Part shown: positions 12,264 through 59,202 of the stretch, in pieces
Layout of the letters: each line of letters starts with the position of its first letter
How positions within the stretch are numbered: position 1 is the first letter of the stretch
Assembly: GCA_934643405.1 (NCBI GenBank)
Contig: CAKUCL010000006.1
Coordinates: 2,714 to 66,713, forward strand
DNA length: 64,000 nucleotides
Direction of reading: 5' to 3'
Source: an uncultured Actinoplanes sp.
GTDB taxonomy: Bacteria > Actinomycetota > Actinomycetes > Mycobacteriales > Micromonosporaceae
The notes under the pieces: generated by a model
The model's database searches: none
Seen by the model: only the letters and a program-made list of their open reading frames with translations
Told to the model about the DNA's origin: nothing
Program-made: the position numbers and the translations under genes

Positions 12264-12284
12264 GCACCACCTGACCCGACGAAG

Positions 12285-12316
12285 GCGGGGGCGGCCCAGG
12301 CATGGGCCGCCCCCGT
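12285..12316. terminator. Bidirectional stem-loop terminator between convergent genes
   Basis: GCGGGGGCGGCCC-aggcat-GGGCCGCCCCCGT: a 12-13 bp GC stem located between stop 12263 (+) and stop 12330 (-). Confidence 0.6.
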
Positions 12317-12329
12317 CGCCCTGTCCGTG

Positions 12330-14504
12330 CTAGGCCGGTGTGGTGGTCCTCGGCTGAGGCAACAGGGCCGCCATCCGCCCGGCGTCCACCGGGCGGCCGA
12401 ACAGGAAGCCCTGGCCGTGGTCGATGCCCAGGCGCCGCAACGTCTCCCATTGCTCACCGGTCTCGATGCCCTCGGCCACCGTCTGCATCTTCAGGGCCGC
12501 ACCCAGGCCCGCGACGGCGTCGACCAGCGCCACGTCGTCCTCGTCGATGTGCACCTCGTCCACGAACGTCTTGTCGATCTTGATGACGTCCACCGGGAGC
12601 TGCTTGAGGTAGCTGAGCGACGAATATCCCGTACCGAAATCGTCGATCGCCAGGCGGACTCCGAGCCGCCGCAGCGCGTGCAACGTCTCCTTCGCCGACT
12701 GGATGTCGGCCATCAGCATCGACTCGGTGATCTCCAGGGTGAGCGACGCGGCGTCCAGGCCCGCGTCCGCCAGCGCCGCCGCGACGTCGTCGACCAGTCC
12801 GGCGTACTGGAACTGCCGGGCCGAGAGGTTGACGTTGACCTTCAGCGACGCGGCCGCCGGTGCCGCCCGGCGCCAGGACGCCAGCTGCGCGCACGCCTGC
12901 CGCAGCACCCACCGGCCGAGCGGCACGATGAGGCCGTTCGCCTCGGCCGCCGCGATGAAGTGATGCGGCCCGAGCAGGCCGTCGCGCGGATGCTGCCAGC
13001 GGACCAGCGCCTCCACCGAGGTGAGCAGCTGGGTCTGCATGTCGACCACCGGCTGGTAGAGGACGACGAATTCCTCGCGCTCCAGCGCCCGCTCGAGATC
13101 GGCCCGCAGCTGCGCCTCGTGGAGCACCGACGCGGTCATGGTCGGGTCGAACAGGGCGTAACCGTTGCGGCCGGCCCGCTTCGCCGCGTACATCGCCAGG
13201 TCGGCGTTGCCGAGCAACTGCTCGGCGCCGAGGCCGTCCTCACCGGGGGCGATGCCGATGCTCAACGAACAGGTCAGATCGCGGCTGCCCAGGCGGATCG
13301 GCGCGTGCGCGGCGCCGAGCAGGCGTTCGGCGAGCCCGGCGGCGTCGTCCGGGGAGACGCCGTGCATCAGGATCGCGAACTCGTCGCCGCCGAGCCGGGC
13401 CAGCAGGTCCTGCTCGCGCACCTGGCCGCGCAGCCGCTCGGCGATCGTGCGCAGCAGCTCGTCGCCGGCGCTGTGCCCGAGGTTGTCGTTGACCAGCTTG
13501 AAGTCGTCCAGGTCGAGAAGTACGACGGTGATCGGCTGGGATGAGGAGGCGGCCAGCGCGTCGTTGAACCGAGCCCGGTTGGGCAGCCCGGTCAGCGCGT
13601 CGGTGAAGGCCTGCCGGCTCAGCTCTTCCTCGAGCTCGCGGCGCTGGCCGATGTCGCGCAGGCTGATCACCGCGGAGCGCAGATCCGGGTCGTCGATCCA
13701 GTTGGTGCCCATCATGTCGACGTAGACCCAGCCGCCGGTGGACGCAAGCCGCGTCTCGACGCGCGCGCTCTCCCCGGTCGGCAGCGCCAGCAGATCGGTC
13801 AGGAAGCCGGAGATCTGGCCGGGCAGGTCCCGGGCGTGGGAACCGAGCAGGCGTTGCACCGACGGGCTGACGTACTTGAGGCTGCCGTCCGCGCCGATCG
13901 CCACGACCGCGTCCGCCGACGCCTCGAGCAGGGCGGCGGCGCGACCTTCGGCCTTGCGCCGGCGGGCGTCCAGGCGCCGGCGACCCTGCGCGCTGACCGC
14001 GGTCAGCACGACCACACAGATCATCATCGCGGTCAGGGTGAGCGTCGAGATCGTCCCGGCGCGGGTCTGCACGGTGAGCAGGTACCCGTACCCGAGAACC
14101 GCGACGAGGCCGAGCAGCACCACGACCCGGGGCGACCACAGCGCCGCCGCGGTGATCAGCAGCAGCACCGCCGCGGGCAGGTACAGCATCGCGCCGCGCG
14201 GATCGGCGACCCCGAACAGCAGCATCACCGGCATCTCGGCGAACCACCAGATCAACAGCTTCCCGCGTACGCCGTCGCGGCGCACCAGGCGAGCCCAGGG
14301 CAACCGCACCAGGGCCGCCTGGGCGACCACCGCCACCATGACCGGGACCAGCCACCAGCGGTCGGCCGGCGGCCACAACATCGTGATGCGCAGGCCACCG
14401 ATCGCGGTGACCGCGGCGGCCACGATCGCGCCCAGCCGGATCTGGCGGGCCCAGTAGTCCGTCGTGTGATCATCCATGTCGCCTCGCCGCACGGGCTGCC
14501 TCAT
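12330..14504 (-). CDS. Membrane-anchored PAS-GGDEF-EAL protein (diguanylate cyclase/phosphodiesterase)
   Basis: N-terminal multi-TM region and a PAS-like segment. Intact GGDEF (RLGGDEFAIL) with an I-site RxxD (REQD) five residues upstream. Intact EAL (VEALVRW) and DDFGTGYSSL. The start could be 14504 or 14477. Confidence 0.9.
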   Translation of the reverse strand: MRQPVRRGDMDDHTTDYWARQIRLGAIVAAAVTAIGGLRITMLWPPADRWWLVPVMVAVVAQAALVRLPWARLVRRDGVRGKLLIWWFAEMPVMLLFGVADPRGAMLYLPAAVLLLITAAALWSPRVVVLLGLVAVLGYGYLLTVQTRAGTISTLTLTAMMICVVVLTAVSAQGRRRLDARRRKAEGRAAALLEASADAVVAIGADGSLKYVSPSVQRLLGSHARDLPGQISGFLTDLLALPTGESARVETRLASTGGWVYVDMMGTNWIDDPDLRSAVISLRDIGQRRELEEELSRQAFTDALTGLPNRARFNDALAASSSQPITVVLLDLDDFKLVNDNLGHSAGDELLRTIAERLRGQVREQDLLARLGGDEFAILMHGVSPDDAAGLAERLLGAAHAPIRLGSRDLTCSLSIGIAPGEDGLGAEQLLGNADLAMYAAKRAGRNGYALFDPTMTASVLHEAQLRADLERALEREEFVVLYQPVVDMQTQLLTSVEALVRWQHPRDGLLGPHHFIAAAEANGLIVPLGRWVLRQACAQLASWRRAAPAAASLKVNVNLSARQFQYAGLVDDVAAALADAGLDAASLTLEITESMLMADIQSAKETLHALRRLGVRLAIDDFGTGYSSLSYLKQLPVDVIKIDKTFVDEVHIDEDDVALVDAVAGLGAALKMQTVAEGIETGEQWETLRRLGIDHGQGFLFGRPVDAGRMAALLPQPRTTTPA

Positions 14505-38619: not shown

Positions 38620-40086
38620 ATGAGTGACACCGACGAGGTCCGGCTCGTTCCCTGCGAACCCGGCCGGTTGAAACCCGACGAGCTGCGCACACTGTTCCTG
38701 TTCGAGAAGCTGACCGATGAGCAGCTTCAGTGGATCTCCGAGCACGGCTGCACCATGCACATGCCGGCCGGTGGCATGGTGGTCCGCGAGGGTGATCCCG
38801 CGGAGCAGTTCTTCGTCCTGCTCAGCGGCACCATCGCGCTGTACCGCCGGGTCGGCCAGGACGACGTCCAGACCACCCGCACCGAGCAGCGCGGCGTGTA
38901 CATGGGCGCCACCCAGGCATATCTGCGCGACGACGGCGTCCCGCGCAGCTACATGGCCAGCATGCGGGCGCTCGACGACTCCGACTTCTTCGTGCTCTCC
39001 GCCGCGGACTTCGGCCACCTCATGCGCGAGTGGTTCCCGATGGCGATCCACCTGCTCGAGGGCCTCACCCTCGGGATGCGGGACCGGGCCGCGGCCATCA
39101 ACACCCGGCAGCGGCTCGCCGCGCTCGGCGCCCTGTCCGCAGGCCTCATGCACGAGCTGAACAACCCGGCCGCGGCCGCCTCCCGGGCCACCGCCTCGCT
39201 GCGCCAGCGGGTCGCCGGCATGCGCCACAAGCTGGGCATGCTCGCCGCCGGCAAGGTGCCGCCGGACCGTCTGGTGGCGCTGGTCGAGCTCCAGGAGGAG
39301 GTCATCGAGCGGGCCGCGAAGGCCGCGCCGCTGACCGCCATGGAGACCGCCGACCGCGAGGACGAGCTCGGCGAGTGGATGGAGGAGCGCAACGTCACCG
39401 GCGGCTGGGACCTGGCCGCGGTCTTCGCCCAGGGCGGACTCGACCTGGAGTGCCTCAACCAGATCGAGACCAAGGTCGGCTCCCCCGAACTGCTCGACCA
39501 GGCGATCCACTGGATCGGCTACGCGCTGGAGACCGAGCAGCTGATGAGCGACATCGAGGACGCCACCGGCCGGGTGTCGTCGCTGGTGAGCGCGGCCAAG
39601 CAGTACTCGCAGATGGACCGCGCCGCGCACCAGTGGATCGACGTGCACGGCGGTCTGGACAGCACGCTGGTGATGCTGACCCACAAGATCGGCAGCGGGG
39701 TCAAGGTGGTCAAGGAGTACGACCGGTCGCTGCCGCAGATCCCGGCCCACCCGGCCGAGCTGAACCAGGTCTGGACGAACCTCATCGACAACGCGGTGCA
39801 GGCGATGAACGGCGTGGGCACGCTGACCATCCGCACGTCCCGCGACGACGACAACGTGGTGGTCACCATCGAGGACACCGGGCCGGGCATCCCGCCGGAG
39901 CTGAAGAAGCGCGTCTTCGAGCCGTTCTTCACCACCAAGCCGGTGGGCGAGGGGACCGGCCTGGGTCTGGACATCTCCTACCGGATCGTGGTCAACGGCC
40001 ACGGCGGCGACATCTCCGTGGAGTCGACGCCGGGTGACACCAGGTTCAAGGTGTCGCTGCCGTTGTCGGAGCCGGCTTCGGCCTAG
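38620..40086 (+). CDS. Soluble cyclic-nucleotide-binding-domain histidine kinase
   Basis: N-terminal cNMP-binding-like beta-barrel (LFEKLTDEQL...VVREGDPAEQFFVLLSG...PRSYMASMRAL). H-box HELNNPAAA. N/G boxes NLIDNAVQAM, DTGPGIPPE, GTGLGLDIS. No TM segments. Confidence 0.85.
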   Translation: MSDTDEVRLVPCEPGRLKPDELRTLFLFEKLTDEQLQWISEHGCTMHMPAGGMVVREGDPAEQFFVLLSGTIALYRRVGQDDVQTTRTEQRGVYMGATQAYLRDDGVPRSYMASMRALDDSDFFVLSAADFGHLMREWFPMAIHLLEGLTLGMRDRAAAINTRQRLAALGALSAGLMHELNNPAAAASRATASLRQRVAGMRHKLGMLAAGKVPPDRLVALVELQEEVIERAAKAAPLTAMETADREDELGEWMEERNVTGGWDLAAVFAQGGLDLECLNQIETKVGSPELLDQAIHWIGYALETEQLMSDIEDATGRVSSLVSAAKQYSQMDRAAHQWIDVHGGLDSTLVMLTHKIGSGVKVVKEYDRSLPQIPAHPAELNQVWTNLIDNAVQAMNGVGTLTIRTSRDDDNVVVTIEDTGPGIPPELKKRVFEPFFTTKPVGEGTGLGLDISYRIVVNGHGGDISVESTPGDTRFKVSLPLSEPASA

Positions 40087-47104: not shown

Positions 47105-47265
47105 TCCTGGCGGAGGGCGACGGGGGAAAGGCGGCGGGCGATGGGCGGCGGGCGGCGGGCAAGGAAAGGAGGGCGATGGGCGGAAGGCGAGGGGCGGAGG
47201 GCGAGGGGTGAGGGGCGGAGGGCAAGGAACGGAGGGCGAGGGGCGAAGGGCGGAGGGGCGAGCGC
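47105..47265 (+). repeat. G-tract-rich purine microsatellite (G-quadruplex-prone)
   Basis: About 160 nt composed almost only of G, A and isolated C (GGCGAGGGGCGGAGGGCGAGGGGTGAGGGGCGGAGGGCAAGG...). It has about 17 runs of three or more G and lies between convergent stops 47092 and 47303. Confidence 0.7.
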
Positions 47266-47302
47266 GTGAAGTGTGCCGCGCGAGGGGGTGCGGGGCGGCG
47301 GG

Positions 47303-48376
47303 TCAAGCCTTCCAGACGTCCTGGTTCGCCTCGTACATCTCGCGCAGGATCGCCGGGACGTCGTAGGTGAGCTTCCAGTCCGGGTAGTGCTCCTCGAAGC
47401 GGGCGGTGCTGCTGATCCACCACTGGTGGTCGCCGGTGCGGGCCTGGTCGACGTACTCGGTCCGCGCCTCGATGCCGGTGATCTCCGAGGCGATCTTGAA
47501 GGCTTCGATGTGGCTGCAGTTCGAGAAGCGCCCGCCGCCCATGTTGTAGACCTCGGCGACCCGGGGTGCGCGGAAGAACGCCTCGAACGCCGAGACCAGG
47601 TCGTGCGAGTGGATGGCGTCGCGGACCATCTTGCCCTTGTAGCCGAAAATCTTGTACGTCCGCTGCTCCATCACACAGCGCATCACGTACGCCAGGAAGC
47701 CGTGCAGTTCCGCGGCCGAGTGACCCGGCCCGGTCAGCGTGCCGCCCCGGAACACCGCGGTCGGCATGTCGAAGTACCGCCCGTACTCCTGGACCATCAC
47801 GTCGGCCGCCACCTTGCTGGCGCCGAACACCGAGTGCGTGCTCTGGTCGATCGACATCGTCTCGTCGATCCCGCCGTACCACTTGTGGTCGGCCGGCAGC
47901 TCCCAGCGGGTCTCCTGCTCGATCAGCGGCAACGAGTTCGGCAGGTCGCCGTAGACCTTGTTGGTCGAGGTGAAGATGAACGGCGCGCCGGCGCTGTGCT
48001 GCCGGACGGCCTCGAGCATGTTCAGCGTGCCGCCGGCGTTGACGTCGAAGTCGGTGAACGGCTCGCGGGCGGCCCAGTCGTGCGACGGCTGAGCGGCGCA
48101 GTGGATCACCAGACCGACGTCCTTACCCAGCTTCGCGAACAGCGCGTTCAGCCCGTCGCGGTCGCGGATGTCCAGGTCATGGTGGGTGTACCGGGCGCCG
48201 GCCTCCTTCTTGAGCCGGTCCAGGTTCCACTTGGTGGAGCCGTCCGAACCGAAGAAGTAGCCGCGCATGTCGTTGTCGACACCGACCACGTCCATGCCGA
48301 GCCCGGCGAAGTGCCGGACCGACTCCGAACCGATCAGGCCGGCCGAGCCGGTGACCACGACGACACTGCTCATCAA
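47303..48376 (-). CDS. NAD-dependent epimerase/dehydratase (CDP-paratose-2-epimerase-like extended SDR)
   Basis: TGSAGLIGS Rossmann motif and FTSTNKVYG. The expected YxxxK is FGASK (Phe in place of Tyr). Confidence 0.85.
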
Positions 48377-48568
48377 GACCTCCGCGGAAGGTGGGGCGGA
48401 ACGGGGCCGAGGTTACAGGGCGTGCGCACCCGGCCGGTCCGGTGGTCGCCGTGTCGAACTGATCATGCTTGGCGCGAGCCCGAAATGGGCACGTCACAGG
48501 ATCGGCACATCCCACCGTGAGGGTGCGTCGACAGGCACATCGCTGAACTGAGGACATGGGCGGTCTGA

Positions 48569-51145
48569 ATGACGGAGTCTCTTCGGGTCACGGCGGACGA
48601 CACCGCCACGGGACCGGACCTCACGCTCGGCGTGGAAGAGGAACTGCATGTGGTCGACCTGGTGACCCGGGAACTGGTGCCGCGCGCACCGGAGATCCTG
48701 GCCCGGCTCGACCCGCAACACTTCTCCGCCGAGTTGCACCGCTCGGTGGTGGAGACGAACACCCCGGTGTCCGGCACGCTGGACGGCCTGCGCGACGGGA
48801 TCGTGGCCCGGCGGCGGCGCGCGATCGAGGTCGCCGAGTCGCTGGGGCTGGGCCTGGTGGCGGCCGGGACCGTCCCGCTGGTCGATCTGGAGTCACTCCC
48901 GGTGACGCCGACGTCGCGCTACCGGCGGATGCTCGACGACTACCAGCTGCTCGCCCGGGAACAGCTGATCTGCGGCGCCCAGGTGCACGTCGGCGTGCCC
49001 GACCGGGACGAGGCGGTCGCGGTCGCCCAGCGGATCACGCCGGTGCTGCCGGTGCTGCTCGCGATCTCGGCCAGCTCGCCGTACTGGATGGGTGAGGACT
49101 CCGGCTACGCCAGCGTGCGCTCGCTGGTCTGGCTGCGCTGGCCCACGGCCGGCGACCCGGGCGTGCTGAACTCGGCGGCCGAGCACGACGAGCTGGTCGC
49201 GGATCTGCTCGCCTCGGGCACGATCACCGATCCGAAGATGGTCTATTTCGACGTACGGCCGTCGGCGCACCTGCCGACCGTGGAGCTGCGGGTCACCGAC
49301 TCGAGCCCGGACGCGGACACGGTCGTGCTGCTCGCGGGCCTGTTCCGCGCGCTCGTGCTGCGCGCCCGCCAGGACCACCGCGCCGGACTCCCCGCGCCAC
49401 GCACCAGGCCACCGCTGCACCGGGCGGCGATGTGGCGGGCCGCGCGGTCGGGACTCGAGGGCGACCTGCTCGACCTGCCGCGTTCGCCGGAGCCGGTGCC
49501 GGCCGCGGTCGCGGTGGAACGGCTCGTCGACGAGCTGCGGCCGCAGCTGGAGGAGCTGGGTGACTGGGAGCAGGTGTTCGACCTGTCGGTGCGGGCGCTC
49601 AGCCGGGGCAGCTCGGCCGCTCGTCAGCGCCGGGCCCTGGCGCGCCGCGGCCGCATCTCCGACGTGGTGGATCTGGTGGTCGCCGACACCCGGGGCGGCG
49701 CGACCGGGATCGGTCCGGAGGGCCAGTCGGTGCCGGCCGGTCTCTTCCCGTACGCGACCGACGGCGACGAGGCTTTCCCGGACGGCGAGGTGGCCGCGCC
49801 GTACGCGGGAATCCTGGAGGTGCTGCAATCGCTGGGCTCCGGTGGCTTGCGCCGCCGCGAGGACGCGCGGGACGACGAGCAGCGCTCCCGGGGCATCACC
49901 TTCAGCGTGGCGGGCGAGGCGGCCACCCGGCTGTTCCCGTTCGACCTGGTGCCGCGGATCGTCCCGGCCGCCGACTGGAGCCGGCTGCGCGACGGGCTCA
50001 CCCAGCGGGTCCGGGCGCTGAATCTCTTCATCGCGGACGTGTACGGCGAGCGGGCCGCGGTGAAGGACGGCGTGATCCCGGAGTGGGTGATCGACGGGTC
50101 GCCGGAGCTGCGGCCCAGCGGCGCGCTGGTCTCGCACGCCGGGGTGCGCGCCCAGGTGGCCGGCGTCGACCTGGTGCGCGACGCGGACGGCCGCTGGTGC
50201 GTGCTGGAGGACAACCTGCGGGTGCCGTCCGGGATCGCCTACGCCATGCAGAACCGCCGGCTCACCGAGAGCGTGCTGCCCGAGCTGCCGGAACCCGACG
50301 GGCTGATCTCGGTGGAGAACACCCCGAAGCTGCTGCGGCGCGCGTTGCTCGACGCGGCCCGCCCGGCCGCCGGCGACGACCCGAAGCTGGTGGTGCTGAG
50401 CCAGGGACCGGAGGATTCGGCCTGGTTCGAGCACCGGATGCTGGCCGAGGAGATGGGTGTGCCGGTGGTCCGCAGCACCGAGCTGTTCGTCGAGGACCAC
50501 CGGGTGTACCGGCTGCGCGACGGCAAGCGCTACCCGGTCGACGTCGTCTACCTGCGGATGGACGAGGACACGCTGGTGCACGCGCCGGGCGCGGACGGGA
50601 TGCCGCTCGGCGCCTCGCTGGTCGGTGCACTGCACGCCGACACGGTGGTGCTGGCCAACGCGCTGGGCAACGGGATCGGCGACGACAAGTCGGTCTACGC
50701 GTACGTGCACCGGCTGATCGAGTACTACCTGGGCGAGAAGCCCCTGCTCGCCGACGTGCCGACGTATCTGTGCGGCATCCCGGAGCAGCGGGCCGAGGTG
50801 CTGGACCGGCTGTCCGAACTGGTCTGCAAACCCGTCGACGGGTACGGCGGGGACCGCATCGTGATCGGCCCGCACGCCTCGCCCGCGGACCTCGACGCGG
50901 TCCGCCGCCAGATCCGGGCGGCGCCGCACCGCTGGGTCGCCCAGGAGGTGGTGTGCCTGTCCACCCATCCGGTCTTCGACGGCCACCAGCTCGGCCCGCG
51001 CCACGTCGACCTGCGCGCCTTCGTGTTCAGCGGCGCCGGGAGTGTCGTCGCGCCGGCCGCGCTGACCCGGGTGGCGCCGGCCGGCAGCATGATCGTCAAT
51101 TCTTCGCGAGGCGGCGGCTCCAAGGACACGTGGCTGCTCTCCTGA
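48569..51145 (+). CDS. Fusion: GCS2/YbdK-type carboxylate-amine ligase plus circularly permuted type-2 ATP-grasp
   Basis: N-terminal ~375 aa are YbdK-like (LTLGVEEELHVVD, GAQVHVGVPD, YFDVRPS). C-terminal ~460 aa are CP-ATP-grasp-2-like (FDLVPRIVPAADWSRLRDGLTQRVRALNLFIADVYG, VLANALGNGIGDDKSVY). Confidence 0.85.
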   Translation: MTESLRVTADDTATGPDLTLGVEEELHVVDLVTRELVPRAPEILARLDPQHFSAELHRSVVETNTPVSGTLDGLRDGIVARRRRAIEVAESLGLGLVAAGTVPLVDLESLPVTPTSRYRRMLDDYQLLAREQLICGAQVHVGVPDRDEAVAVAQRITPVLPVLLAISASSPYWMGEDSGYASVRSLVWLRWPTAGDPGVLNSAAEHDELVADLLASGTITDPKMVYFDVRPSAHLPTVELRVTDSSPDADTVVLLAGLFRALVLRARQDHRAGLPAPRTRPPLHRAAMWRAARSGLEGDLLDLPRSPEPVPAAVAVERLVDELRPQLEELGDWEQVFDLSVRALSRGSSAARQRRALARRGRISDVVDLVVADTRGGATGIGPEGQSVPAGLFPYATDGDEAFPDGEVAAPYAGILEVLQSLGSGGLRRREDARDDEQRSRGITFSVAGEAATRLFPFDLVPRIVPAADWSRLRDGLTQRVRALNLFIADVYGERAAVKDGVIPEWVIDGSPELRPSGALVSHAGVRAQVAGVDLVRDADGRWCVLEDNLRVPSGIAYAMQNRRLTESVLPELPEPDGLISVENTPKLLRRALLDAARPAAGDDPKLVVLSQGPEDSAWFEHRMLAEEMGVPVVRSTELFVEDHRVYRLRDGKRYPVDVVYLRMDEDTLVHAPGADGMPLGASLVGALHADTVVLANALGNGIGDDKSVYAYVHRLIEYYLGEKPLLADVPTYLCGIPEQRAEVLDRLSELVCKPVDGYGGDRIVIGPHASPADLDAVRRQIRAAPHRWVAQEVVCLSTHPVFDGHQLGPRHVDLRAFVFSGAGSVVAPAALTRVAPAGSMIVNSSRGGGSKDTWLLS

Positions 51146-51166
51146 CCAGTTGTGGAGGTTCTCCTC

Positions 51167-52939
51167 ATGTGCGGCATCGCCGGTGAGCTTCGATTCGACG
51201 GACGCGCGGCGGACGAGGAAGCGGTGCGGCGGATGCTGCCCCGCCTGGCCTCGCGCGGACCGGACGGCGAGGGCGTGTTCAGCCGCGCCCGGGTCGCCTT
51301 CGGCCACCGGCGCTTGAAGATCATCGACCTGTCCGACGCGGGCGGGCAGCCGATGACCGACGACGAGCTCGGGCTCACCCTCGTCTTCAACGGCTGCATC
51401 TACAACTACCAGCAGCTTCGCGACGAGCTCCGCGGGTACGGCTACCGGTTCTCCTCCACCTCGGACACCGAGGTGATTCTGAAGGCCTACCACCGCTGGG
51501 GTCCGGACTGCGTGACGCGGTTTCTCGGCATGTTCGCGTTCGCGATCGTCTCTCATCAGGACGGGACGGTCATGCTGGCCCGCGACCGGCTCGGGATCAA
51601 GCCGTTGTACCTGGCCGAGACCCCGGGGCGGCTACGGTTCGCCTCGACGCTGCCGGCGCTGCTCGCGGCGGGCGACGTCGACACGTCGCTGGACAAGGTC
51701 GCGCTCCAGCACTACATGACGTTCCACTCGGTGGTCCCGGCCCCGAGGACCATCCTTGCGGGCGTACGGAAGTTGCCGCCCGCCACCGTGCGGATCCTGC
51801 GCGCCGACGGATCGTCGCAGGAGCGCGTCTACTGGGAGGCGTCGTTCACCCGCGACCGGGACGTCCCCGCGGCGGAGTGGCCGGCGCTGATCCACTCGGC
51901 CCTGGCGCGCGCGGTGGAGCGGCGGATGGTCGCGGACGTGCCGGTCGGGGTGCTGCTGTCCGGCGGGATCGACTCCAGCTACATCGTGGCCCTGCTCGCG
52001 GCCCAGGGGCAGCGCGGGCTCACCACGTTCAGCATCGGGTTCGAGGCGGCCGGCGGGGAGAGCGGCGACGAGTTCGCGTACTCGGACATCATCGCGAAGC
52101 AGTTCGACACCGAGCACCACCAGATCCGGATCGGCCGGGACCGCTTCCTGCCGGCGGTGGACCGGACGGTCGCGGCCATGAGCGAGCCGATGGTGTCGCA
52201 CGACTGCATCGCGTTCAACCTGCTCAGCGAGGACGTGTCGAAGCACGTCAAGGTCGTGCAGTCCGGGCAGGGCGCGGACGAGATCCTGGCCGGGTACAGC
52301 TGGTACCCGCCGCTGGTCGACGTGCCCCGTGATCAGGCCGTCGATGCCTACGCCGCGGAGTTCTTCGACCGTACGCACGCTCGTCTCGCCCGGCAGCTCG
52401 CGCCCGAGTGGCTGGTCGGCCGGGACGTCAGCCGGGAGTTCGTCGAGGCGAGCTTCGCCCGGCCCGGCGCCGGCACCGCGGTCGACGCGGCGTTGCGGCT
52501 GGACTCGCAGGTGATGCTCGTCGACGATCCGGTCAAGCGGGTCGACAACATGACGATGGCGTGGGGGCTGGAGGCTCGCGTACCGTTCCTCGACCACGAG
52601 CTGGTCGAGCTGGCCGCGGCCTGCCCGCCCGAGCTGAAGCTGGCGCACGGCGGCAAGGGGGTGCTCAAGGAGGCGGCCCGCGGCGTCGTGCCGGACGAGG
52701 TGATCGACCGCACCAAGGGCTACTTCCCGGTGCCCGGCATCCGGCACCTGGAGGGGGCGATGCTCGAGAAGGTCCGCGCCGCGCTGTCCGCGCCCGCGGC
52801 CCGCGACCGCGGGTTGTTCCGGCCGGAGTACGTGGACCTCCTGCTGGCCGACCCGAACACGCCCCGCACCACGCTGGGCGCCAACCAGCTGTGGCAGCTG
52901 GCCCTGCTGGAGATGTGGCTTCAAGACAAGGGGATCTGA
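51167..52939 (+). CDS. Glutamine-hydrolysing asparagine-synthase-family amidotransferase (AsnO/AsnB-like)
   Basis: The Ntn start MCGIAG requires Cys2, so the start is ATG 51167, not 51152. PP-loop LLSGGIDSSYIV. Confidence 0.9.
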   Translation: MCGIAGELRFDGRAADEEAVRRMLPRLASRGPDGEGVFSRARVAFGHRRLKIIDLSDAGGQPMTDDELGLTLVFNGCIYNYQQLRDELRGYGYRFSSTSDTEVILKAYHRWGPDCVTRFLGMFAFAIVSHQDGTVMLARDRLGIKPLYLAETPGRLRFASTLPALLAAGDVDTSLDKVALQHYMTFHSVVPAPRTILAGVRKLPPATVRILRADGSSQERVYWEASFTRDRDVPAAEWPALIHSALARAVERRMVADVPVGVLLSGGIDSSYIVALLAAQGQRGLTTFSIGFEAAGGESGDEFAYSDIIAKQFDTEHHQIRIGRDRFLPAVDRTVAAMSEPMVSHDCIAFNLLSEDVSKHVKVVQSGQGADEILAGYSWYPPLVDVPRDQAVDAYAAEFFDRTHARLARQLAPEWLVGRDVSREFVEASFARPGAGTAVDAALRLDSQVMLVDDPVKRVDNMTMAWGLEARVPFLDHELVELAAACPPELKLAHGGKGVLKEAARGVVPDEVIDRTKGYFPVPGIRHLEGAMLEKVRAALSAPAARDRGLFRPEYVDLLLADPNTPRTTLGANQLWQLALLEMWLQDKGI

Positions 52940-52946
52940 GTCGTTC

Positions 52947-54689
52947 ATGGGTGGTGACGTCACCGTTCTGCCGCTGGGCTGGACGAGTCTGACCCTCGCG
53001 TCCGAGGCGTCCGGAAGCTGGTCGCCGACGCTGTCCCCGGACGGCATGCACGCGGCCTACGTGTCCGACCGCAGCGGTCGCCCGCAGGTGTGGGTGCAGC
53101 CGGTCGGCTCGTCGCTGGCGTTCCTGGTGGACACCGGGCCGGCGCCGGTCTCGGCGGTGCAGTGGTCGACCGGCGGCGGGTGGCTGGCCTGTCAGCTGGC
53201 GCCGGGCGGGGCGCCACGGCACGAGGTGTGGCTGGTCCGGCCGGACGGGTCGGGGCTGCATCAGGTGGCCGGCTTCGGCAGCGACACCGCGGACACCATG
53301 CGGTGGCTGCCGGGCCGCTCGCTGCTGGCGGTGACCGAGAACCTGACGACCGCCCTGCTGATCGACCCGGTGGCGAGTTCCCGGACGATCATCACGACCG
53401 GCGAGCTGATCTCGCTGCTCGACGTGAACGCCGACGGGGATCGGGCGCTGCTGCGGGTGGGGCCGCGCGGGGATCGCACGATCGTGCTGCGCGCGTTGCC
53501 GGACGGGCCCGACGAGCCGGTCGCGGTCGGCGAGCAGGCGGTGTTCGGGCCGGACGGCCGGACCGTCTACGCGCGGTCGGAGGACGGCGAGTTCCCGGTG
53601 CTGGTGCGGGACGGTGTTCGGCTCACCCCGGTGGTGGACTCCGAGGTGGAGGCGTTCGCGCTCACCGCCGACGGGCGGCGGGTGGCCGTGCTGTGGAACG
53701 TCCGCGGTGGCCAATCGGAGGTCTCGCTTCTCGCGGAACGATCGCTGCCGTTGCCGGGGCCGGTGGTGAGCGGGCTGACCTGGAGCTTCGACGGGTCGGC
53801 GCTGGCGTTCACGGCCGAGGGGCCGGGGCAGCCCCATGGCGTGTGGGTCTACACGGACGCCGGCGGCCTGGTGGCGGTCTCGGCGGATCCGGCCGCGGCC
53901 GACGCCGTACGGCCGAGCCTGGAGGCCTTCGCGGCGCACGACGGGCTCACGTTGACCGGGTGGTTGTTCCGGCCGCGGACGCCCGGGCCGCACCCGGCGG
54001 TGGTGTGGCTGCACGGCGGGCCGGAGGCGCAGGAGAGGCCGGGGCACGGCCCGCTGTTCCAGTCGCTGGTGGCGCGGGGCATCGCGGTCTTCGCGCCGAA
54101 CGTGCGGGGGTCGTCGGGCTTCGGGCGCACATTCGTCAACGCGGACAATCTGGGCTTGCGGTACGGCGCGGTCGAGGACGTGCGATCATCCGTTCGGTAC
54201 CTGGTCAATGGGGGTATCGCCGACACATCGCGCGTCGGGTGCATGGGTCGTTCCTACGGCGGATACTTGACGTTGGCCGCGTTGACCTCCTTCCCCGACC
54301 TGTTCGCGGTCGGGATCGACGTCTGCGGCATGTCCAACTTTTTCACCTTTTATGAGCACACGGAGCCGTGGATCGCGGCGGCGGCCGTGTCGAAGTACGG
54401 GGACCCGATCGCCGACAGGGATCTGCTGGCCGATCTGTCCCCGATCAACCGCATCGACCGGCTGAAGGCTCCGCTGCTGATAGTCCACGGCGAGAACGAC
54501 AGCAACGTGCCGGTGATCGAGGCCGAGCAGGTGGCGCGGGCCCTCGCCGCCCGGGGCGTCGAGCACCGATACCTGCTCTTCCCCGACGAGGGCCACGAGC
54601 TGCTGCACCGGTCCAGCCGAGCCGACTACCTGCGCGAGACAGTCGACTGGCTGACCACCCACCTCCTGCCGCCCCCGCACCGCCCGTAG
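52947..54689 (+). CDS. S9-family serine peptidase (beta-propeller plus alpha/beta hydrolase)
   Basis: GRSYGG nucleophile elbow, HGENDSNV (Asp), FPDEGHEL (His). N-terminal propeller-like repeats. Confidence 0.9.
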   Translation: MGGDVTVLPLGWTSLTLASEASGSWSPTLSPDGMHAAYVSDRSGRPQVWVQPVGSSLAFLVDTGPAPVSAVQWSTGGGWLACQLAPGGAPRHEVWLVRPDGSGLHQVAGFGSDTADTMRWLPGRSLLAVTENLTTALLIDPVASSRTIITTGELISLLDVNADGDRALLRVGPRGDRTIVLRALPDGPDEPVAVGEQAVFGPDGRTVYARSEDGEFPVLVRDGVRLTPVVDSEVEAFALTADGRRVAVLWNVRGGQSEVSLLAERSLPLPGPVVSGLTWSFDGSALAFTAEGPGQPHGVWVYTDAGGLVAVSADPAAADAVRPSLEAFAAHDGLTLTGWLFRPRTPGPHPAVVWLHGGPEAQERPGHGPLFQSLVARGIAVFAPNVRGSSGFGRTFVNADNLGLRYGAVEDVRSSVRYLVNGGIADTSRVGCMGRSYGGYLTLAALTSFPDLFAVGIDVCGMSNFFTFYEHTEPWIAAAAVSKYGDPIADRDLLADLSPINRIDRLKAPLLIVHGENDSNVPVIEAEQVARALAARGVEHRYLLFPDEGHELLHRSSRADYLRETVDWLTTHLLPPPHRP

Positions 54690-54691
54690 AC

Positions 54692-54866
54692 CCCACCGTC
54701 GCGTGGGGATGTACGCCGCCCTGGCGGGCGGAAGTCCCCACGCTGCGGCAACCCACCGTCGTGTGGGGATGTACGCCGTCCTGGCGGGCGGGAGTCCCCA
54801 CGCTGCGGCGGCCCACCGTCGTGTGGGGATGTGCGCCGCCCTGGACGGCGGGAATCCCCACGCTGC
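54692..54866. repeat. Tandem array (3 x 60 nt) of a nested-hairpin REP-like element, family variant B
   Basis: Units at 54692, 54752 and 54812: CCCACCGTCGYGTGGGGA-tgtacg-CCGCCC-tggc-GGGCGG-aag-TCCCCAC-gctgcggc. The array exactly fills the spacer between convergent stops 54689 (+) and 54866 (-). Confidence 0.85.
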
Positions 54867-55684
54867 TAGCGGTCGGCTGTCAGCACGTCGGCCAAGGGGG
54901 TGGCGGGATGGCCGGTCAGGCGCGGGACGTCCGGGCTGACCCGGGCCAGCTCACCGACCGCGATCGCGGTGTAGGTGGTCACCCACGCGTCGACCTGCCA
55001 GGCCGGCACGTCGTAGCCGGCCCGGGACGCGTACGCCTCCGGGACCGTCTCGGCGTGGTAGCTCACCTCGCGCCCGGTCGCCGCCGCGATGATCTCGGCG
55101 GCCTCGGCCAGGGACACCGCCGCGGGCCCGGTCAGGTCGTACGTGCGGGCCACGTGCGGCGCCGGGTCGCGCAGCACGGCCACGGCGGCGTCGGCGATGT
55201 CGTCCTGGGCGACCACCGCGGCACGCCCGTCACCGGCCGGGCCGCGGATCACGCCGTCCGCGCCGACCATCATCGGCAGGAAGTCCGCGTACAGGTTGTC
55301 CCGCAGGAACGTGAACGCCAGCCCGCTGCGCCGGATGTGCTGCTCGGTGTGCCAGTGGTCGCGGGCCAGCGTGAACGTCGCATCCGCGGCCGCCCCCGCG
55401 AACGACGTGTAGACCACCTGCCGTACGCCCGCCTCCACCGCGGCGTCCACGAACGAGCGATGCCGGTCGACCCGGTCCGGTGTCTCGGCCGCGGAGACCA
55501 TCAGGACGGTCTCGGCGCCGTCCAGCGCCCGCCGCATCGCCTCCCGGTCGCCGTACTCGGCGACCGCGGCCTCCACGTCGGAAGGCACCTTCGCCGGGTC
55601 GCGGTACAGCAGCCGCACCCGCCCGTCGAGCCGCTGCGCCACCCGCCTGCCGAGCCGCCCGCTCGCGCCGGACACCACGATCAT
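54866..55684 (-). CDS. NmrA-like / NAD(P)H-binding SDR-fold protein
   Basis: MIVVSGASGRLG Rossmann start. ATGA overlap with the upstream amidohydrolase gene. Confidence 0.8.
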   Translation of the reverse strand: MIVVSGASGRLGRRVAQRLDGRVRLLYRDPAKVPSDVEAAVAEYGDREAMRRALDGAETVLMVSAAETPDRVDRHRSFVDAAVEAGVRQVVYTSFAGAAADATFTLARDHWHTEQHIRRSGLAFTFLRDNLYADFLPMMVGADGVIRGPAGDGRAAVVAQDDIADAAVAVLRDPAPHVARTYDLTGPAAVSLAEAAEIIAAATGREVSYHAETVPEAYASRAGYDVPAWQVDAWVTTYTAIAVGELARVSPDVPRLTGHPATPLADVLTADR

Positions 55685-56664
55685 GCCGAACCTCCTGGAA
55701 ACAACACCCGAACCGTCGCCATGACGTCGGCGAACACGACCGGCGAGAGGTCGAGCCCGCCCGGTATCCAGCTCACCCCGTCGTCGGTCATCGCCACCAG
55801 GATCTCCTCCGGGGTGAGCCCGGCGCTCTGCAACGCCCGGATCTCCCGCGGATTCACCGTCGGCGGAAGCGGCCCGTTCCCCAGATCCGTCCCGTAGCGC
55901 ACGCGTCCGCCGTACTCGAGAAAGCGCCGCAGGTTTCCGATCGCCGTGGTCTGTTCCCGCGTGGGCGAGCCCCACCCGTGGATGTCCAGCGTGCTGATCC
56001 ACTGCATCCGCTCGGCGCAGACCCGCACCAGCCCGGGATCCAGCGGTTCGGTCCAGGGAGTGTGGGCCAGGATGTCGGCGCCGCTTTCGTACGCGACAAC
56101 GACCGTCCCCGGCCCTTCGGCGTGCACCACCACGGGAAGCCCCAGTTCATGAGCCGCCCGCACCACGGCGGTCATCGTGGGCAGGTCCATCCGCGGGCCG
56201 CCGGCGTGCGCGGTCATCTTGATCAGCGTCGCTCCGCCCGCGGCCGCCGCGCCCACGGCCTCGCTCGCCTCGGCGGCCGAGCCGATCGTCCGCCAGCTGC
56301 CCGGTGCGGCCCACGACCGGTCACTCGGGTAGCCCCCGGGGGCGGTGAGGAACGGTCCGGCGTAGCGGACGCCGGGGAACCCCGGGCGTCCCACGAGACC
56401 GGCCACACGGGACGGGACGCTGCCCAGGTCCCAGACGCCGGCGATCCCGCCCGCCCGCAGCACGGCCAGGTCGGTCAGTCCGGAGTGGACGTGCGCGTCG
56501 AGGATGCCGGGCAGCAGCGTGCCGGGGAACTGCCGTCGCCTCGCCCCCTCGGGGATGTCGTCCAGCGGCACCGGATCGGCCCGGCCGTCCGACCACCGCA
56601 GCGCCTCCCCGGTGCGCAGCCGGCCGTCCCACCAGAGCGACCCGGAGAGCAGGAACTCCGTCAC
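55681..56664 (-). CDS. Amidohydrolase-superfamily metal-dependent hydrolase
   Basis: GILDAHVHSG metal-binding motif and VVVHAEG. 4-nt overlaps with both kynU and the NmrA-like gene. Confidence 0.8.
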   Translation of the reverse strand: MTEFLLSGSLWWDGRLRTGEALRWSDGRADPVPLDDIPEGARRRQFPGTLLPGILDAHVHSGLTDLAVLRAGGIAGVWDLGSVPSRVAGLVGRPGFPGVRYAGPFLTAPGGYPSDRSWAAPGSWRTIGSAAEASEAVGAAAAGGATLIKMTAHAGGPRMDLPTMTAVVRAAHELGLPVVVHAEGPGTVVVAYESGADILAHTPWTEPLDPGLVRVCAERMQWISTLDIHGWGSPTREQTTAIGNLRRFLEYGGRVRYGTDLGNGPLPPTVNPREIRALQSAGLTPEEILVAMTDDGVSWIPGGLDLSPVVFADVMATVRVLFPGGSA

Positions 56665-57881
56665 TTCAGCAGGTCACGCAGCACCGACAGGCCGCGGTGC
56701 ACCTCGACGAAGCTGGTGCTCAGCGGGGCCGGACCGATCCGCAGCCCGTCGGGGCGGCGGTAGTCCGGGATCACCCCGGCGTCCCACAGCCGGTCCAGGA
56801 GGCCGGCGAAACCGGCCCGCTTCAGGGTCACGTGACCGCCGCGCCTCTCCGGTTCGCGCGGACTGACGATCTCCACCCCCAGCTCCTTGAGCCAGGAGTC
56901 CGCCAGCTCTACGGCGTACGAAGTAATTTGAACTGATTTCTCGCGGATTTTGGCCATGGTGGCGGCCTCGAGCACGTCCAGGTTCGCGTGCAACGGCACC
57001 ATGGCGAGGATCGGCGGCGTCCCGGAGAGCAGCGCCCGCGACCCCTTGGCCGGCTCGAAACCCGGGCCCATCTCGAACGACGACCGGTGGCCCATCCAGC
57101 CCCAGATCGGCTGTCGCAGGTCACCCTGCAGGCTCGCGTTCAGATAGGCGAACGCGGGCGCACCGGGACCGCCGTTCAGGTACTTGTACGTGCATCCGAC
57201 CGCGAGATCGACGCCCCACTCGTCCAGCTCGATCGGCACCGAGCCGGCCGAATGGCACAGGTCCCACATCGCCAGCGCGCCGGCCTCGTGCGCGATCCGG
57301 GTGATCTCCGGGACGTCGGCGAGCCAGCCCGACCGGTACGCGACGTGGCTGAACAGCACCAGCGCGGTGCGGTCGTCGACGACCTCGGCCACCTGCTCGG
57401 GCCGCACGCCCTCGACCGGGTCGGTGGTGATCCAGACCAGCTCCAGGTTCCGCTCGGCGGCGATGCCCTCCAGCACGTATCGGTCGGTGGGGAAGTTGTC
57501 GGTGTCCAGCACCACCCGGTTGCGTCCGGGCCGGGCATCCACCGCCGCCCGCGCCAGCTTGTAGATCAGCACGGTGGTCGAGTCGCCGATCACCGTCTGC
57601 CCGGATTTCGCGCCGAGCGCCAGGTCACCGAGCCGGTCGCCGAGGGTCAGCGGCCACTCCATCCACTCGTCGGTCCAGCCACGGATCAGCCGGCCCGCCC
57701 ACTGCCGGCGGATGAACTGGTCCATCAGCTCGGCGGTCGCGGCGAGCGGCCGGCCCAGCGAGTTGCCGTCCAGGTAGGAGATGACGTCGGCGTCGTCCGG
57801 GGTGATGAACCGGTCGCGGAACTCCGCCAGCGGGTCGGCGGCGTCCAGCGCGTCGGCGCGGGCCAGCAGGTCGTCGGTCAA
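56661..57881 (-). CDS. kynU: Kynureninase
   Basis: PLP-dependent kynureninase-like throughout (YLDGNSLG, CTYKYLNGGPGAPAF, RIGPAPLSTSF). Confidence 0.9.
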   Translation of the reverse strand: MTDDLLARADALDAADPLAEFRDRFITPDDADVISYLDGNSLGRPLAATAELMDQFIRRQWAGRLIRGWTDEWMEWPLTLGDRLGDLALGAKSGQTVIGDSTTVLIYKLARAAVDARPGRNRVVLDTDNFPTDRYVLEGIAAERNLELVWITTDPVEGVRPEQVAEVVDDRTALVLFSHVAYRSGWLADVPEITRIAHEAGALAMWDLCHSAGSVPIELDEWGVDLAVGCTYKYLNGGPGAPAFAYLNASLQGDLRQPIWGWMGHRSSFEMGPGFEPAKGSRALLSGTPPILAMVPLHANLDVLEAATMAKIREKSVQITSYAVELADSWLKELGVEIVSPREPERRGGHVTLKRAGFAGLLDRLWDAGVIPDYRRPDGLRIGPAPLSTSFVEVHRGLSVLRDLLK

Positions 57882-58732
57882 CTGACGGCTCCGATCTCGG
57901 TGCGTACGGCGTACAGCTCGGGGAAGAAGGTGAGGTCCAGGGCCTTGCGCAGGAAGGACACGCCGCTCGAGCCGCCGGTGCCGCGCTTGAACCCGATGAT
58001 CCGTTCCACCGTCTTCATGTGCCGGAACCGCCAGAACTGGAAGTTCTCCTCCAGATCGACAAGTTCCTCACAGGCCTCGTACGCCTCCCAGTAGCGCTCC
58101 GGGTTCTCGTAGATGCGCTGGAAGACGGGCACCAGGTCGGGGTTGAACGTCCACGGCAGGCGGACGTCGCGCTGGAGCAGCTCGACCGGCACGTGGTGGC
58201 CGTGGCGGGCCAGGTACCGCAGGAACTCGTCGTAGACGGTCGGCGCCTCGTACGCCTCGGTCAGCATGTCCCTGGCCGCCGGGTCGTCGTCGAAGATCTT
58301 CAGCATGTCCCGGTGCTTGTTGCCGAGGCTGAACTCGACCGCCCGGTACTGGTACGACTGGAAGCCGGATGAGGTGCCCAGGAAGCTGCGGAACTCCGAG
58401 TACTCGCTCGGGGTCAGCGTGGCCAGCACCGACCACTGCTCGGTCAGCGTGCGCTGGATGTGCTTGACCCGGGCGAGGCCCTTGAGCGCCGGCCGCAGGT
58501 CGTCCTTGGCGAGCAGCCGCTGCACCGACCGCAGCTCGTGCAGCACCAGCTTGAACCACAGCTCGGTGGTCTGGTGCTGGACGATGAACAGCAGCTCGTC
58601 ATGGTGTTCCGGGACGCTCACCGGATGCTGGGCGTCCAGGATCTCGTCGAGGTGCAGATACTTGCCGTACGAGAGATTGACCTTGAAATCGCGGACTATC
58701 GCGTCCTCGAGCGGCCGTTGCTCCGCGGACAT
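57878..58732 (-). CDS. kynA: Tryptophan 2,3-dioxygenase
   Basis: 284 aa from ATG 58732. LSYGKYLHLDEIL, HDELLFIVQHQTTELWFK, SGFQSYQYR, GTGGSSG are TDO hallmarks. Confidence 0.9.
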   Translation of the reverse strand: MSAEQRPLEDAIVRDFKVNLSYGKYLHLDEILDAQHPVSVPEHHDELLFIVQHQTTELWFKLVLHELRSVQRLLAKDDLRPALKGLARVKHIQRTLTEQWSVLATLTPSEYSEFRSFLGTSSGFQSYQYRAVEFSLGNKHRDMLKIFDDDPAARDMLTEAYEAPTVYDEFLRYLARHGHHVPVELLQRDVRLPWTFNPDLVPVFQRIYENPERYWEAYEACEELVDLEENFQFWRFRHMKTVERIIGFKRGTGGSSGVSFLRKALDLTFFPELYAVRTEIGAVS

Positions 58733-58776
58733 GGTGTTCCTCCTCAGGTATTCCTCCTTGAGGAGATCACACCTGG

Positions 58777-59202
58777 TCAGATGTTGGCGAGGGACCCATC
58801 GGTAAGGATCGGTCCCCAGTACATCCACTGACCGTCGTGCCGCACGAACCGGCTGCGCTCCACCACGTCGCCGGGCTTGCCGTGGTCGCGGTAGTGGGCC
58901 CGGAACTCGACAACCCCCTCGGCGTCGAACATCCCGCCGCCGCTGGTCTCGAGGATGTCCAGCCCCACCCAGCTCAGATGCGGGTCGGGCTCGATCTCGG
59001 CGGGACGCGTCGCCGGGTGCCAGGAGCTCAGCACGAAGGCGTCGTCGTCGATCGCGAACGCCGAGTACCGCGAGCGCATGAGCGCCTCGGCCGTGGCCGG
59101 CGGCTGACCATGATGCGCGGGTTCGCAGCACTCGGTGTAAGAAAGCCCACGCCCGCAGGGGCAGGCAGCGTCCGCCTTGAGTTTCGTCTTGGTTCGAGCC
59201 AT
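58777..59202 (-). CDS. YchJ-family (SEC-C motif) protein
   Basis: 141 aa from ATG 59202. N-terminal CPCGRGLSYTECC and an NTF2-like body (LMRSRYSAF). Confidence 0.85.
   Translation of the reverse strand: MARTKTKLKADAACPCGRGLSYTECCEPAHHGQPPATAEALMRSRYSAFAIDDDAFVLSSWHPATRPAEIEPDPHLSWVGLDILETSGGGMFDAEGVVEFRAHYRDHGKPGDVVERSRFVRHDGQWMYWGPILTDGSLANI

Follow-up and report, generated by a model that had tools for sequence, protein, structure and literature searches.

A putative actinobacterial operon carrying a predicted ligase-type, Ngg-independent cassette for an N-acetylglutaminylglutamine amide-style peptide amide

Introduction

The osmolyte N-acetylglutaminylglutamine amide (NAGGN), which is induced by high osmolarity, is the product of a gene trio, encoding the amidotransferase AsnO, the dipeptide ligase Ngg and a peptidase of the M42 family, that is known in S. 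meliloti, P. aeruginosa, Azospirillum and many Micromonospora. The canonical Azospirillum locus reads AsnO-Ngg-M42, its Ngg passing the model TIGR03103 (884 bits) and its M42 peptidase passing TIGR03106. Several papers describe "NAGGN clusters" as core to Micromonospora, and Micromonospora provocatoris produces the compound itself; the supplement of that study lists the canonical "NAGGN system M42 peptidase" (PMC8146288). Here we describe a three-gene locus from an uncultured Actinoplanes sp. (assembly GCA_934643405.1, contig CAKUCL010000006.1, positions 2,714 to 66,713 of the forward strand; this 64-kb stretch, with a G+C content of about 71%, is the window), in which an AsnO-type gene is accompanied by a fusion of two ligases and by an S9 serine peptidase. 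Our reading, to which we give a probability of roughly 0.62, is that the three genes form one operon and would constitute an actinobacterial ligase-type (L-type) cassette for a NAGGN-style peptide amide, independent of Ngg, with NAGGN or a close analogue as its product. The first-pass annotation of this DNA had supposed that the architecture is uncharacterized, and a literature search indeed found no paper that describes or tests it.

Results

The three genes and their products

The open reading frames (ORFs) follow one another head to tail on the + strand, separated by 21 nt and 7 nt. The features of the cassette are as follows.

48569-51145, + strand: gene 1, fusion ligase of a GCS2/YbdK-type and a circularly permuted (CP) ATP-grasp domain, 858 aa (Pfam, NCBIfam and PDB matches)
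48626-49690, + strand: GCS2/YbdK-like domain of gene 1, aa 20-374 (PF04107, NF010041, TIGR02050)
49766-51139, + strand: CP-ATP-grasp domain of gene 1, aa 400-857 (PF14403, PF04174, 3N6X)
51167-52939, + strand: gene 2, AsnO-type glutamine-dependent amidotransferase, 590 aa (TIGR03104, motifs)
52947-54689, + strand: gene 3, S9 serine peptidase with PD40 and catalytic domains, 580 aa (Pfam, motifs)

The N-terminal half of gene 1 matches the Pfam family GCS2 (PF04107) over aa 20-296 (E 2.6e-55, 188 bits against a cutoff of 21) and YbdK-type NCBIfam models over aa 19-374 (TIGR02050, 281 bits against 176; NF010041, 371 against 332). It aligns with the YbdK structures 1R8G and 1TT4 over about 350 residues, motifs included, and keeps GVEEELH (21-27), QVHVGV (138-143), SASSPY (167-172), DVRPS (228-232) and VELRV (238-242). 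The equivalog models for glutamate–cysteine ligase all scored below their cutoffs (NF010043, 279 against 409; EgtA, 21 against 371), and the sole model of that name that the domain passes, NF010041, is of subfamily level. The C-terminal half matches CP_ATPgrasp_2 (PF14403) over aa 462-836 (E 3.6e-125, 418 bits, profile positions 1-374 of 374), and PF04174 matches as well. The closest structure is 3N6X, an uncharacterized "putative glutathionylspermidine synthase", which covers aa 400-857 with an E of 7.5e-103. The motifs LEDNLRVPSG (546-555), GNGIGDDK (700-707), KPVDGYGG (754-761) and SSRGGGSKDTW (845-855) are present in this domain.

Gene 2 starts with GTG at 51152 in the ORF list; the biological start is the ATG at 51167, which lies 9 nt after a GGAGG and opens the sequence MCGIAG. 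The protein combines GATase_6/7 and Asn_synthase domains. Its nucleophile Cys2 (in MCGIAG, residues 1-6) and its PP-loop SGGIDSS (265-271) are both invariant in our AsnO alignment. Its full-length match to TIGR03104 ("N-acetylglutaminylglutamine amidotransferase") reaches 962 bits against a cutoff of 570, and the protein is 60% identical to the AsnO of S. meliloti pSymB over 100% of the length and 64% identical to that of Azospirillum. Gene 3 is composed of PD40 and Peptidase_S9 (PF00326, 157 bits) domains, with HGGP at 356-359 and the catalytic residues S436 (GRSYGG), D518 and H550 in the S9 catalytic domain. Its best PDB matches are all acylamino-acid-releasing enzymes (5L8S, E 1e-36; 1VE6; 5YZM; 7PX8), for which the catalytic domain alone aligns, and among described enzymes it most resembles the acylaminoacyl peptidases, so that we predict it to be S9C-like. 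Acylaminoacyl peptidases remove an N-acylated residue from short peptides; the likeness would thus suit an N-blocked dipeptide amide as substrate. None of the four catalytic modules of the cassette has lost its active-site motifs. The layout and domain assignments of the first-pass annotation, namely three co-directional genes with gaps of 21 and 7 nt, an 858-aa fusion whose two domains are now matched by Pfam models, an asparagine-synthase-family amidotransferase recognized by MCGIAG and SGGIDSS, and an S9 peptidase with a GRSYGG/D/H triad, are therefore all upheld.

Conservation and rearrangement of the cassette

The same annotation had raised the concern that the fusion could be an assembly artefact. 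The fusion is real and old. Among the matches listed there are at least 120 homologues with 82-95% identity over 97-100% of the length, from Actinoplanes, Paractinoplanes and allied Micromonosporaceae, which NCBI labels [quoted passage not shown]. Searching representatives clustered at 50% identity gave about nine more full-length clusters with identities down to 42%, and 25 of the 26 metagenomic pairs of GCS2 and CP-ATP-grasp are a single uninterrupted ORF. A scan of one genome per species yielded 15 loci with a full-length fusion (Actinoplanes, Micromonospora, Pseudonocardia, Mycobacterium, Williamsia, Microlunatus and uncultured Actinomycetota). By tblastn with the window proteins, AsnO follows the fusion in all 15 and the S9 peptidase follows AsnO in 14; metagenomic contigs agree, and the co-conservation of the three genes on which the first-pass hypothesis depended is borne out. 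Two Pseudonocardia loci carry an insert of 2.4-3.3 kb between the fusion and AsnO. In one of these, from a Pseudonocardia metagenome-assembled genome (MAG), the insert holds a type III glutamine synthetase (L009 12647-15064, minus strand, opposite in orientation to the genes on either side), which we considered as a conserved glutamine supply and dismissed, as it occurs at that locus only. All-versus-all clustering of the ORFs of 19 AsnO loci found no fourth conserved gene and no acetyltransferase.

Beyond the fusion, the order of the cassette is plastic:

GCS2-AsnO-S9: Streptomyces fungicidicus, S. viridifaciens, Embleya and Nonomuraea
AsnO-S9-CPgrasp: Nakamurella sp. and Klenkia
AsnO-CPgrasp: Nakamurella deserti
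AsnO-S9-GCS2-CPgrasp, with GCS2 and CP-grasp as separate genes that overlap by 4 nt: Pseudokineococcus
AsnO-S9 only, with no ligase within 8 kb: Streptomyces sp. NBC_01001

The split arrangement of Pseudokineococcus is a Rosetta-stone counterpart of the fusion. A cassette reported for Frankia is probably related to those of Nakamurella and Klenkia: its asnO cluster has an "Ngg" that shares less than 15% identity with true Ngg, with a peptidase between the two (PMC5563000). We take this "Ngg" to be, with fair probability, a CP-ATP-grasp protein of the Nakamurella/Klenkia type; there is no Frankia among the best 120 relatives. In neighbor-joining trees, the CP-grasp domains linked to AsnO, be they part of a fusion or separate, group in one clade that excludes 64 stand-alone proteins of the alpha-E type, and the GCS2 domains linked to AsnO (fused, or solo in Streptomycetaceae and Nonomuraea) likewise form one clade, with the unlinked GCS2 of Rhodococcus outside. 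In both trees, the fusion-AsnO-S9 cassette of a contig labelled Nevskia sp. (L016, JAQGNS010000511.1, a MAG) nests among those of Mycobacterium; the contig is probably mis-binned, or else the cassette was recently transferred. In Streptomyces fungicidicus (L001), an OsmC-family gene (4854-5294, minus strand) and a SpoIIE-family phosphatase gene (11036-13102, minus strand) flank GCS2-AsnO-S9, flanks that are suggestive of a stress context at this one locus.

The conservation bears directly on whether the three genes could be neighbors by accident, each with a function of its own. The link between them is known from sequence alone, which leaves some room for this reading. It is nonetheless strongly disfavored, as the linkage is kept over at least 10 actinobacterial families, including changed orders, fusions and fissions, the gaps are of 21 and 7 nt, and AsnO is co-inherited with its partner type.

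Relation to the canonical NAGGN trio

When searched by tblastn with the Azospirillum Ngg, neither the 64-kb window nor any ligase-type locus showed an Ngg. No M42 peptidase was matched at these places either, the S9 peptidase being present instead. We extended the comparison to metagenomes, by scanning contigs with the AsnO alignment and typing the neighbors of the 80 loci obtained; 33 of these are well flanked (at least 3 kb upstream and at least 4 kb downstream). The partners of AsnO were distributed as follows.

Ngg, with or without M42: 32/80 loci (16 with M42); 14/33 well-flanked loci
GCS2 and/or CP-grasp, with or without S9: 34/80 loci; 19/33 well-flanked loci
S9 only: 6/80 loci; 0/33 well-flanked loci
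No partner: 8/80 loci; 0/33 well-flanked loci
Both partner types: 0/80 loci; 0/33 well-flanked loci

The two ligase systems are mutually exclusive at these loci: none had M42 together with the ligases, or S9 together with Ngg. The S9-only and partnerless loci are mostly truncated contigs. It had been noted at first pass that the NAGGN cluster, too, carries a peptidase. This stands for the canonical loci, with the qualifications that the family there is M42, not S9, and that the gene is not always present.

These counts also inform the proposal that AsnO and the S9 peptidase are the core of the system and act on pre-existing or imported peptides, by trimming followed by C-terminal amidation or by salvage, with the ligases as optional additions. 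No other pair of genes is as constant as these two. In Streptomyces sp. NBC_01001 the nearest 8 kb hold no ligase, the metagenomic locus L096 has none in the 2.3 kb upstream, and ligase content varies among GCS2, CP-grasp, both and none. We regard the proposal as improbable all the same: none of the 33 well-flanked metagenomic AsnO loci is without a ligase or Ngg, the peptidase is missing where the ligase is kept in L014, L089 and three well-flanked metagenomic loci, and the membership of the ligases in dedicated, monophyletic subfamilies speaks for an obligatory partnership.

The AsnO proteins themselves are divided by partner. In a neighbor-joining tree of 110 sequences, one split, with a bootstrap of 78/100, parts 37 Ngg-linked from 58 ligase-linked AsnO, and the AsnO of the S9-only loci all fall on the ligase side. 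The expectation of the first-pass annotation that its AsnB-like protein belongs to the AsnO family is thus confirmed by the TIGR03104 score and the 60-64% identities, with the refinement that it lies in a sister clade to the Ngg-linked enzymes. Mean identity is 67-68% within the groups and 63% between them. Of the 590 alignment columns, 173 are at least 98% conserved overall, and at thresholds of 90%/5% no column is fixed differently between the 37 Ngg-linked and the 58 ligase-linked sequences; relaxed thresholds brought out three weak C-terminal positions (525, 569 and 571) that discriminate the groups. TIGR03104 is likewise blind to the cassette type, with 962 bits for the window protein, 940-954 for other L-type proteins, 947 for canonical Micromonospora and 1026 for Azospirillum. 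The lack of fixed differences, together with the equal model scores, argues for both AsnO lineages acting on the same or nearly the same acceptor. The model confers the name N-acetylglutaminylglutamine amidotransferase on L-type proteins even where Ngg is absent (window 51167-52939; L001, L085 and L086). The "NAGGN cluster" calls in genome-mining papers on actinomycetes may therefore mix two different cassettes.

The foremost alternative is that the cassette makes a peptide amide chemically unlike NAGGN, for example a gamma-glutamyl di- or tripeptide amide or a thiol of the glutathione-amide type. For such a product, GCS2 would make gamma-Glu-X, the ATP-grasp domain would add a third residue and AsnO would perform the C-terminal amidation. 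The N-terminal domain passes NF010041, which is named glutamate--cysteine ligase; the succession of a ligase of the glutamate–cysteine ligase (GCL) superfamily and an ATP-grasp ligase parallels GshF, as judged from family knowledge; gshAB came up in searches as a distant relative of the Ngg ATP-grasp; the cassettes hold no acetyltransferase; and AsnO parts into two clades by partner type. The name of the GCS2 domain, however, comes from homology only, and no specificity-determining residues separate the AsnO groups, whose TIGR03104 scores are equal. The cassettes moreover look complementary, not additive, over loci and over named Micromonospora species, and Actinomycetota are generally known to use mycothiol and ergothioneine already. 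On balance we consider a distinct amide unlikely, while ranking it well above the other alternatives treated here.

Distribution of the two cassettes in Micromonospora

A single family, and even a single genus, contains both cassette types. Ngg of the canonical kind is abundant in Micromonospora (including relatives of M. tulbaghiae and M. chalcea), Polymorphospora and Verrucosispora, where intact AsnO-Ngg-M42 loci are found; there is no Actinoplanes among the best 120 relatives of Ngg. L-type AsnO was found in 10 named species of Micromonospora, namely ureilytica, arida, saelicesensis, zamorensis, orduensis, lupini, parva, arborensis, vinacea and profundi. About 36 named species of the genus have Ngg, and not one name is common to the two lists, which suggests, from the sequences sampled, a complementary distribution of the two cassettes across the named species. 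We weighed NAGGN production by M. provocatoris as chemical evidence in favor of the fusion cassette and rejected it, since that strain carries the canonical M42/Ngg system.

Flanking and regulatory features

Outside the three genes, the immediate surroundings comprise the following features.

47303-48376, minus strand: NAD-epimerase-family gene, upstream neighbor
48374-48568, + strand: upstream non-coding region, divergent from the epimerase gene (sequence reading)
54692-54866, + strand: 60-nt G+C-rich hairpin unit in 2.9 tandem copies, filling the convergent spacer that separates the peptidase gene from the NmrA-like gene (Tandem Repeats Finder)
54866-56002, minus strand: NmrA-like gene, downstream neighbor

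With a minus-strand gene on each flank, the three-gene set appears as a self-contained unit. The upstream region contains the motif A[CT]GGGC[AG]CGTCAC at window 48485-48497, about 84 nt 5' of the fusion's start codon. The motif recurs about 85-95 nt 5' of the start in two Actinoplanes loci (L005 9913-9925 and L006 9922-9934) and, at the equivalent position upstream of the start, in Micromonospora (L007/L008 9770-9782); judging from this recurrence, it may be a promoter or an operator. Scans of the locus for sigma-70 promoters and for intrinsic terminators returned nothing. A search for a riboswitch or leader RNA upstream of the fusion found neither: the region matched no Rfam family at E<=1 and its RNA fold was like that of shuffled sequences (z = 0.23). 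In the downstream spacer, the units of the 60-nt repeat match at 91% in Tandem Repeats Finder, with three copies against zero expected by chance, and the RNA fold is strong (-121 kcal/mol, z = -5.2). No further copy of the repeat occurs elsewhere in the 64-kb window, and it probably serves as a transcript end or an insulator.

A 28-codon ORF at 48466-48552, upstream of the fusion gene, brings up the question of ribosomal peptide modification or protein tagging, akin to the pathways of peptides that are ribosomally synthesized and then modified after translation (RiPPs). Besides this ORF, relatives of CP_ATPgrasp_2 sit in operons with alpha-E and transglutaminase genes, and lasso-peptide clusters can include AsnB-like enzymes and S9 peptidases, though the matches to the corresponding NCBIfam models are weak and well below cutoff (lasso cyclase, 225 against 525; isopeptidase, 75 against 400). 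The alpha-E/transglutaminase operons have reportedly been predicted to be peptide-tagging systems. The short ORF was rejected as a RiPP precursor or leader peptide: it varies in length between 25 and 31 codons, lacks C-terminal conservation within Actinoplanes and is absent from Micromonospora. The loci yielded no conserved gene for a precursor. The glutaminase domain of AsnO is intact, in a protein that is 60-64% identical to a small-molecule enzyme, and the neighborhood lacks alpha-E and transglutaminase genes. A role in ribosomal peptide modification or tagging is, in our estimation, very improbable. The first-pass remark that alpha-E and transglutaminase genes, the usual partners of CP-ATP-grasp, are absent here is accurate: there are none in the neighborhood of the cassette in the window and none conserved in the 19 AsnO loci, and in Nocardia L020, the one locus checked for the usual arrangement, a stand-alone CP-ATP-grasp gene is followed by alpha-E and transglutaminase genes.

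The farther neighbors look unrelated (an LCM methyltransferase, a DinB/MST protein, a kynureninase and a tryptophan dioxygenase). The kynureninase-like gene adjoins the tryptophan 2,3-dioxygenase gene of the kynurenine pathway (56661-59131, minus strand). Elsewhere, the window encodes a histidine kinase with a cyclic-nucleotide-binding domain (38620-40086, + strand) and a c-di-GMP-I-GGC riboswitch aptamer (Rfam RF03167; 9280-9358, + strand; 59.5 bits against a gathering threshold of 59, E 1.6e-11). The spacer before the minus-strand epimerase gene has a G-rich tract of degenerate short repeats at 47200-47270 (ggcgaggggtgaggggcggagggcaagg...).

Discussion

In the mechanism that we favor for the cassette, the two ATP-dependent ligase domains of the fusion would take the place of Ngg and build a small glutamine-containing, N-capped di- or tripeptide. 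The AsnO-type enzyme would adenylate the C-terminal carboxylate of this peptide and convert it to the amide, with ammonia from the hydrolysis of glutamine at Cys2. The S9C-like peptidase, in the place of M42, would degrade or recycle the compound, for example by releasing an N-acylated residue. N-Acetylglutaminylglutamine (NAGG) has two amide bonds, acetyl-Gln and Gln-Gln, and both could be formed by the two ligases; alternatively, primary metabolism may supply one of the ligases with N-acetylglutamate or N-acetylglutamine. NAGGN, made without a dedicated acetyltransferase of the GNAT family, or a very close analogue is the most likely product, and it would act as a compatible solute or stress protectant. 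The more specific proposition, that the L-type cassette leads to NAGGN, or to an analogue with an N-cap, without any GNAT enzyme, its ligases either making the N-acyl bond as well as the peptide bond or drawing on N-acetylglutamate or N-acetylglutamine, is advanced as a tentative one, with the odds in our view some way against it. The first-pass annotation had inferred a small peptide-amide pathway from the combination of ligases, an amidation enzyme and a peptidase. Co-conservation and the identity of AsnO support this logic; the part that did not hold in general is the pair of ligations, which is not universal.

Several points weigh against the reading of the cassette as a source of NAGGN or a close analogue. 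The sole detection of NAGGN in an actinobacterium that we found (PMC8146288) is from a strain with the canonical system, and thus lends the L-type cassette no chemical support. By ORF clustering, no acetyltransferase is conserved near any L-type cassette, which leaves the origin of the N-acetyl cap unexplained. Enzymes of the GCS2 family are usually tied to gamma-glutamyl chemistry, not to alpha-peptide bonds. There are cassettes with GCS2 alone, with CP-grasp alone or with no linked ligase (L086), and with ligase content so variable a fixed scheme of two ligations cannot hold everywhere; where there is a single ligase, the second activity would be supplied in trans, or the product would vary. 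As to the data, the species lists for Micromonospora are samples and not complete, all trees are neighbor-joining trees, and a bootstrap was computed for the AsnO split alone.

For annotation, the consequence is that a large share of Actinomycetota lack the NAGG-forming enzyme and have two unrelated ligases instead. This amounts either to a second biosynthetic solution to the same osmolyte or to a related, unknown amide that is being mislabelled. In both cases the YbdK/GCS2 and CP-ATP-grasp families become tied to a well-understood partner enzyme, so that their substrates are directly testable. Should the GNAT-independent route prove true, it would provide the first physiological function for the YbdK-type GCS2 and CP-ATP-grasp families, and a clean case of non-orthologous displacement of Ngg and M42 within one genus, Micromonospora. 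The matter is of relevance to how soil-dwelling and plant-associated actinomycetes tolerate osmotic stress and desiccation.

Comparison with known systems

Each part of the cassette has a described relative. The GCS2 domain shares its Pfam family and motifs with YbdK of E. coli and Salmonella; unlike YbdK, it is fused to a second ligase, lies inside an AsnO cassette and belongs to a dedicated AsnO-linked clade. We know of no physiological substrate for YbdK. The peptidase has in common with the S9C acylaminoacyl peptidases (Aeropyrum pernix 1VE6, Sporosarcina 5L8S, mammalian AARE 7PX8; E 1e-36 to 5e-22) the Ser/Asp/His triad, the HGGP motif and an N-terminal beta-propeller, whereas only the catalytic domain aligns and the gene is dedicated here to an AsnO operon. 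The C-terminal domain of the fusion is 41-51% identical to the stand-alone proteins of the CP-ATP-grasp/alpha-E/transglutaminase operons (COG2308-type), from which the AsnO-linked domains are set apart as a separate clade.

The fusion as a whole is reminiscent of GshF/GshAB, which, from what is known of the families, also places a GCL/GS-superfamily ligase N-terminally and an ATP-grasp ligase C-terminally. By analogy, this order of domains suggests that the fusion carries out two successive ATP-dependent amide-bond formations on one polypeptide. The differences are of note: the N-terminal domain is of the YbdK/GCS2 type and not of the GshA type, the ATP-grasp is PF14403 and not of the D-Ala-D-Ala ligase kind, an amidotransferase and a peptidase accompany the fusion, and no relationship was detected at the sequence level.

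The closest system remains the NAGGN trio. The two share the same AsnO equivalog, with no fixed difference between the AsnO groups, and the same operon logic of ligase, amidotransferase and peptidase. In contrast, Ngg, in which a GNAT domain is joined to an ATP-grasp domain similar to RimK and cyanophycin synthetase, is replaced in the L-type cassette by the unrelated GCS2 and CP-ATP-grasp domains, and the M42 peptidase by an S9C-like serine peptidase. The L-type cassette is without an acetyltransferase, and its AsnO is of a sister clade of which no member is found beside Ngg. The L-type cassette is a widespread, uncharacterized actinobacterial alternative to the known NAGGN trio.

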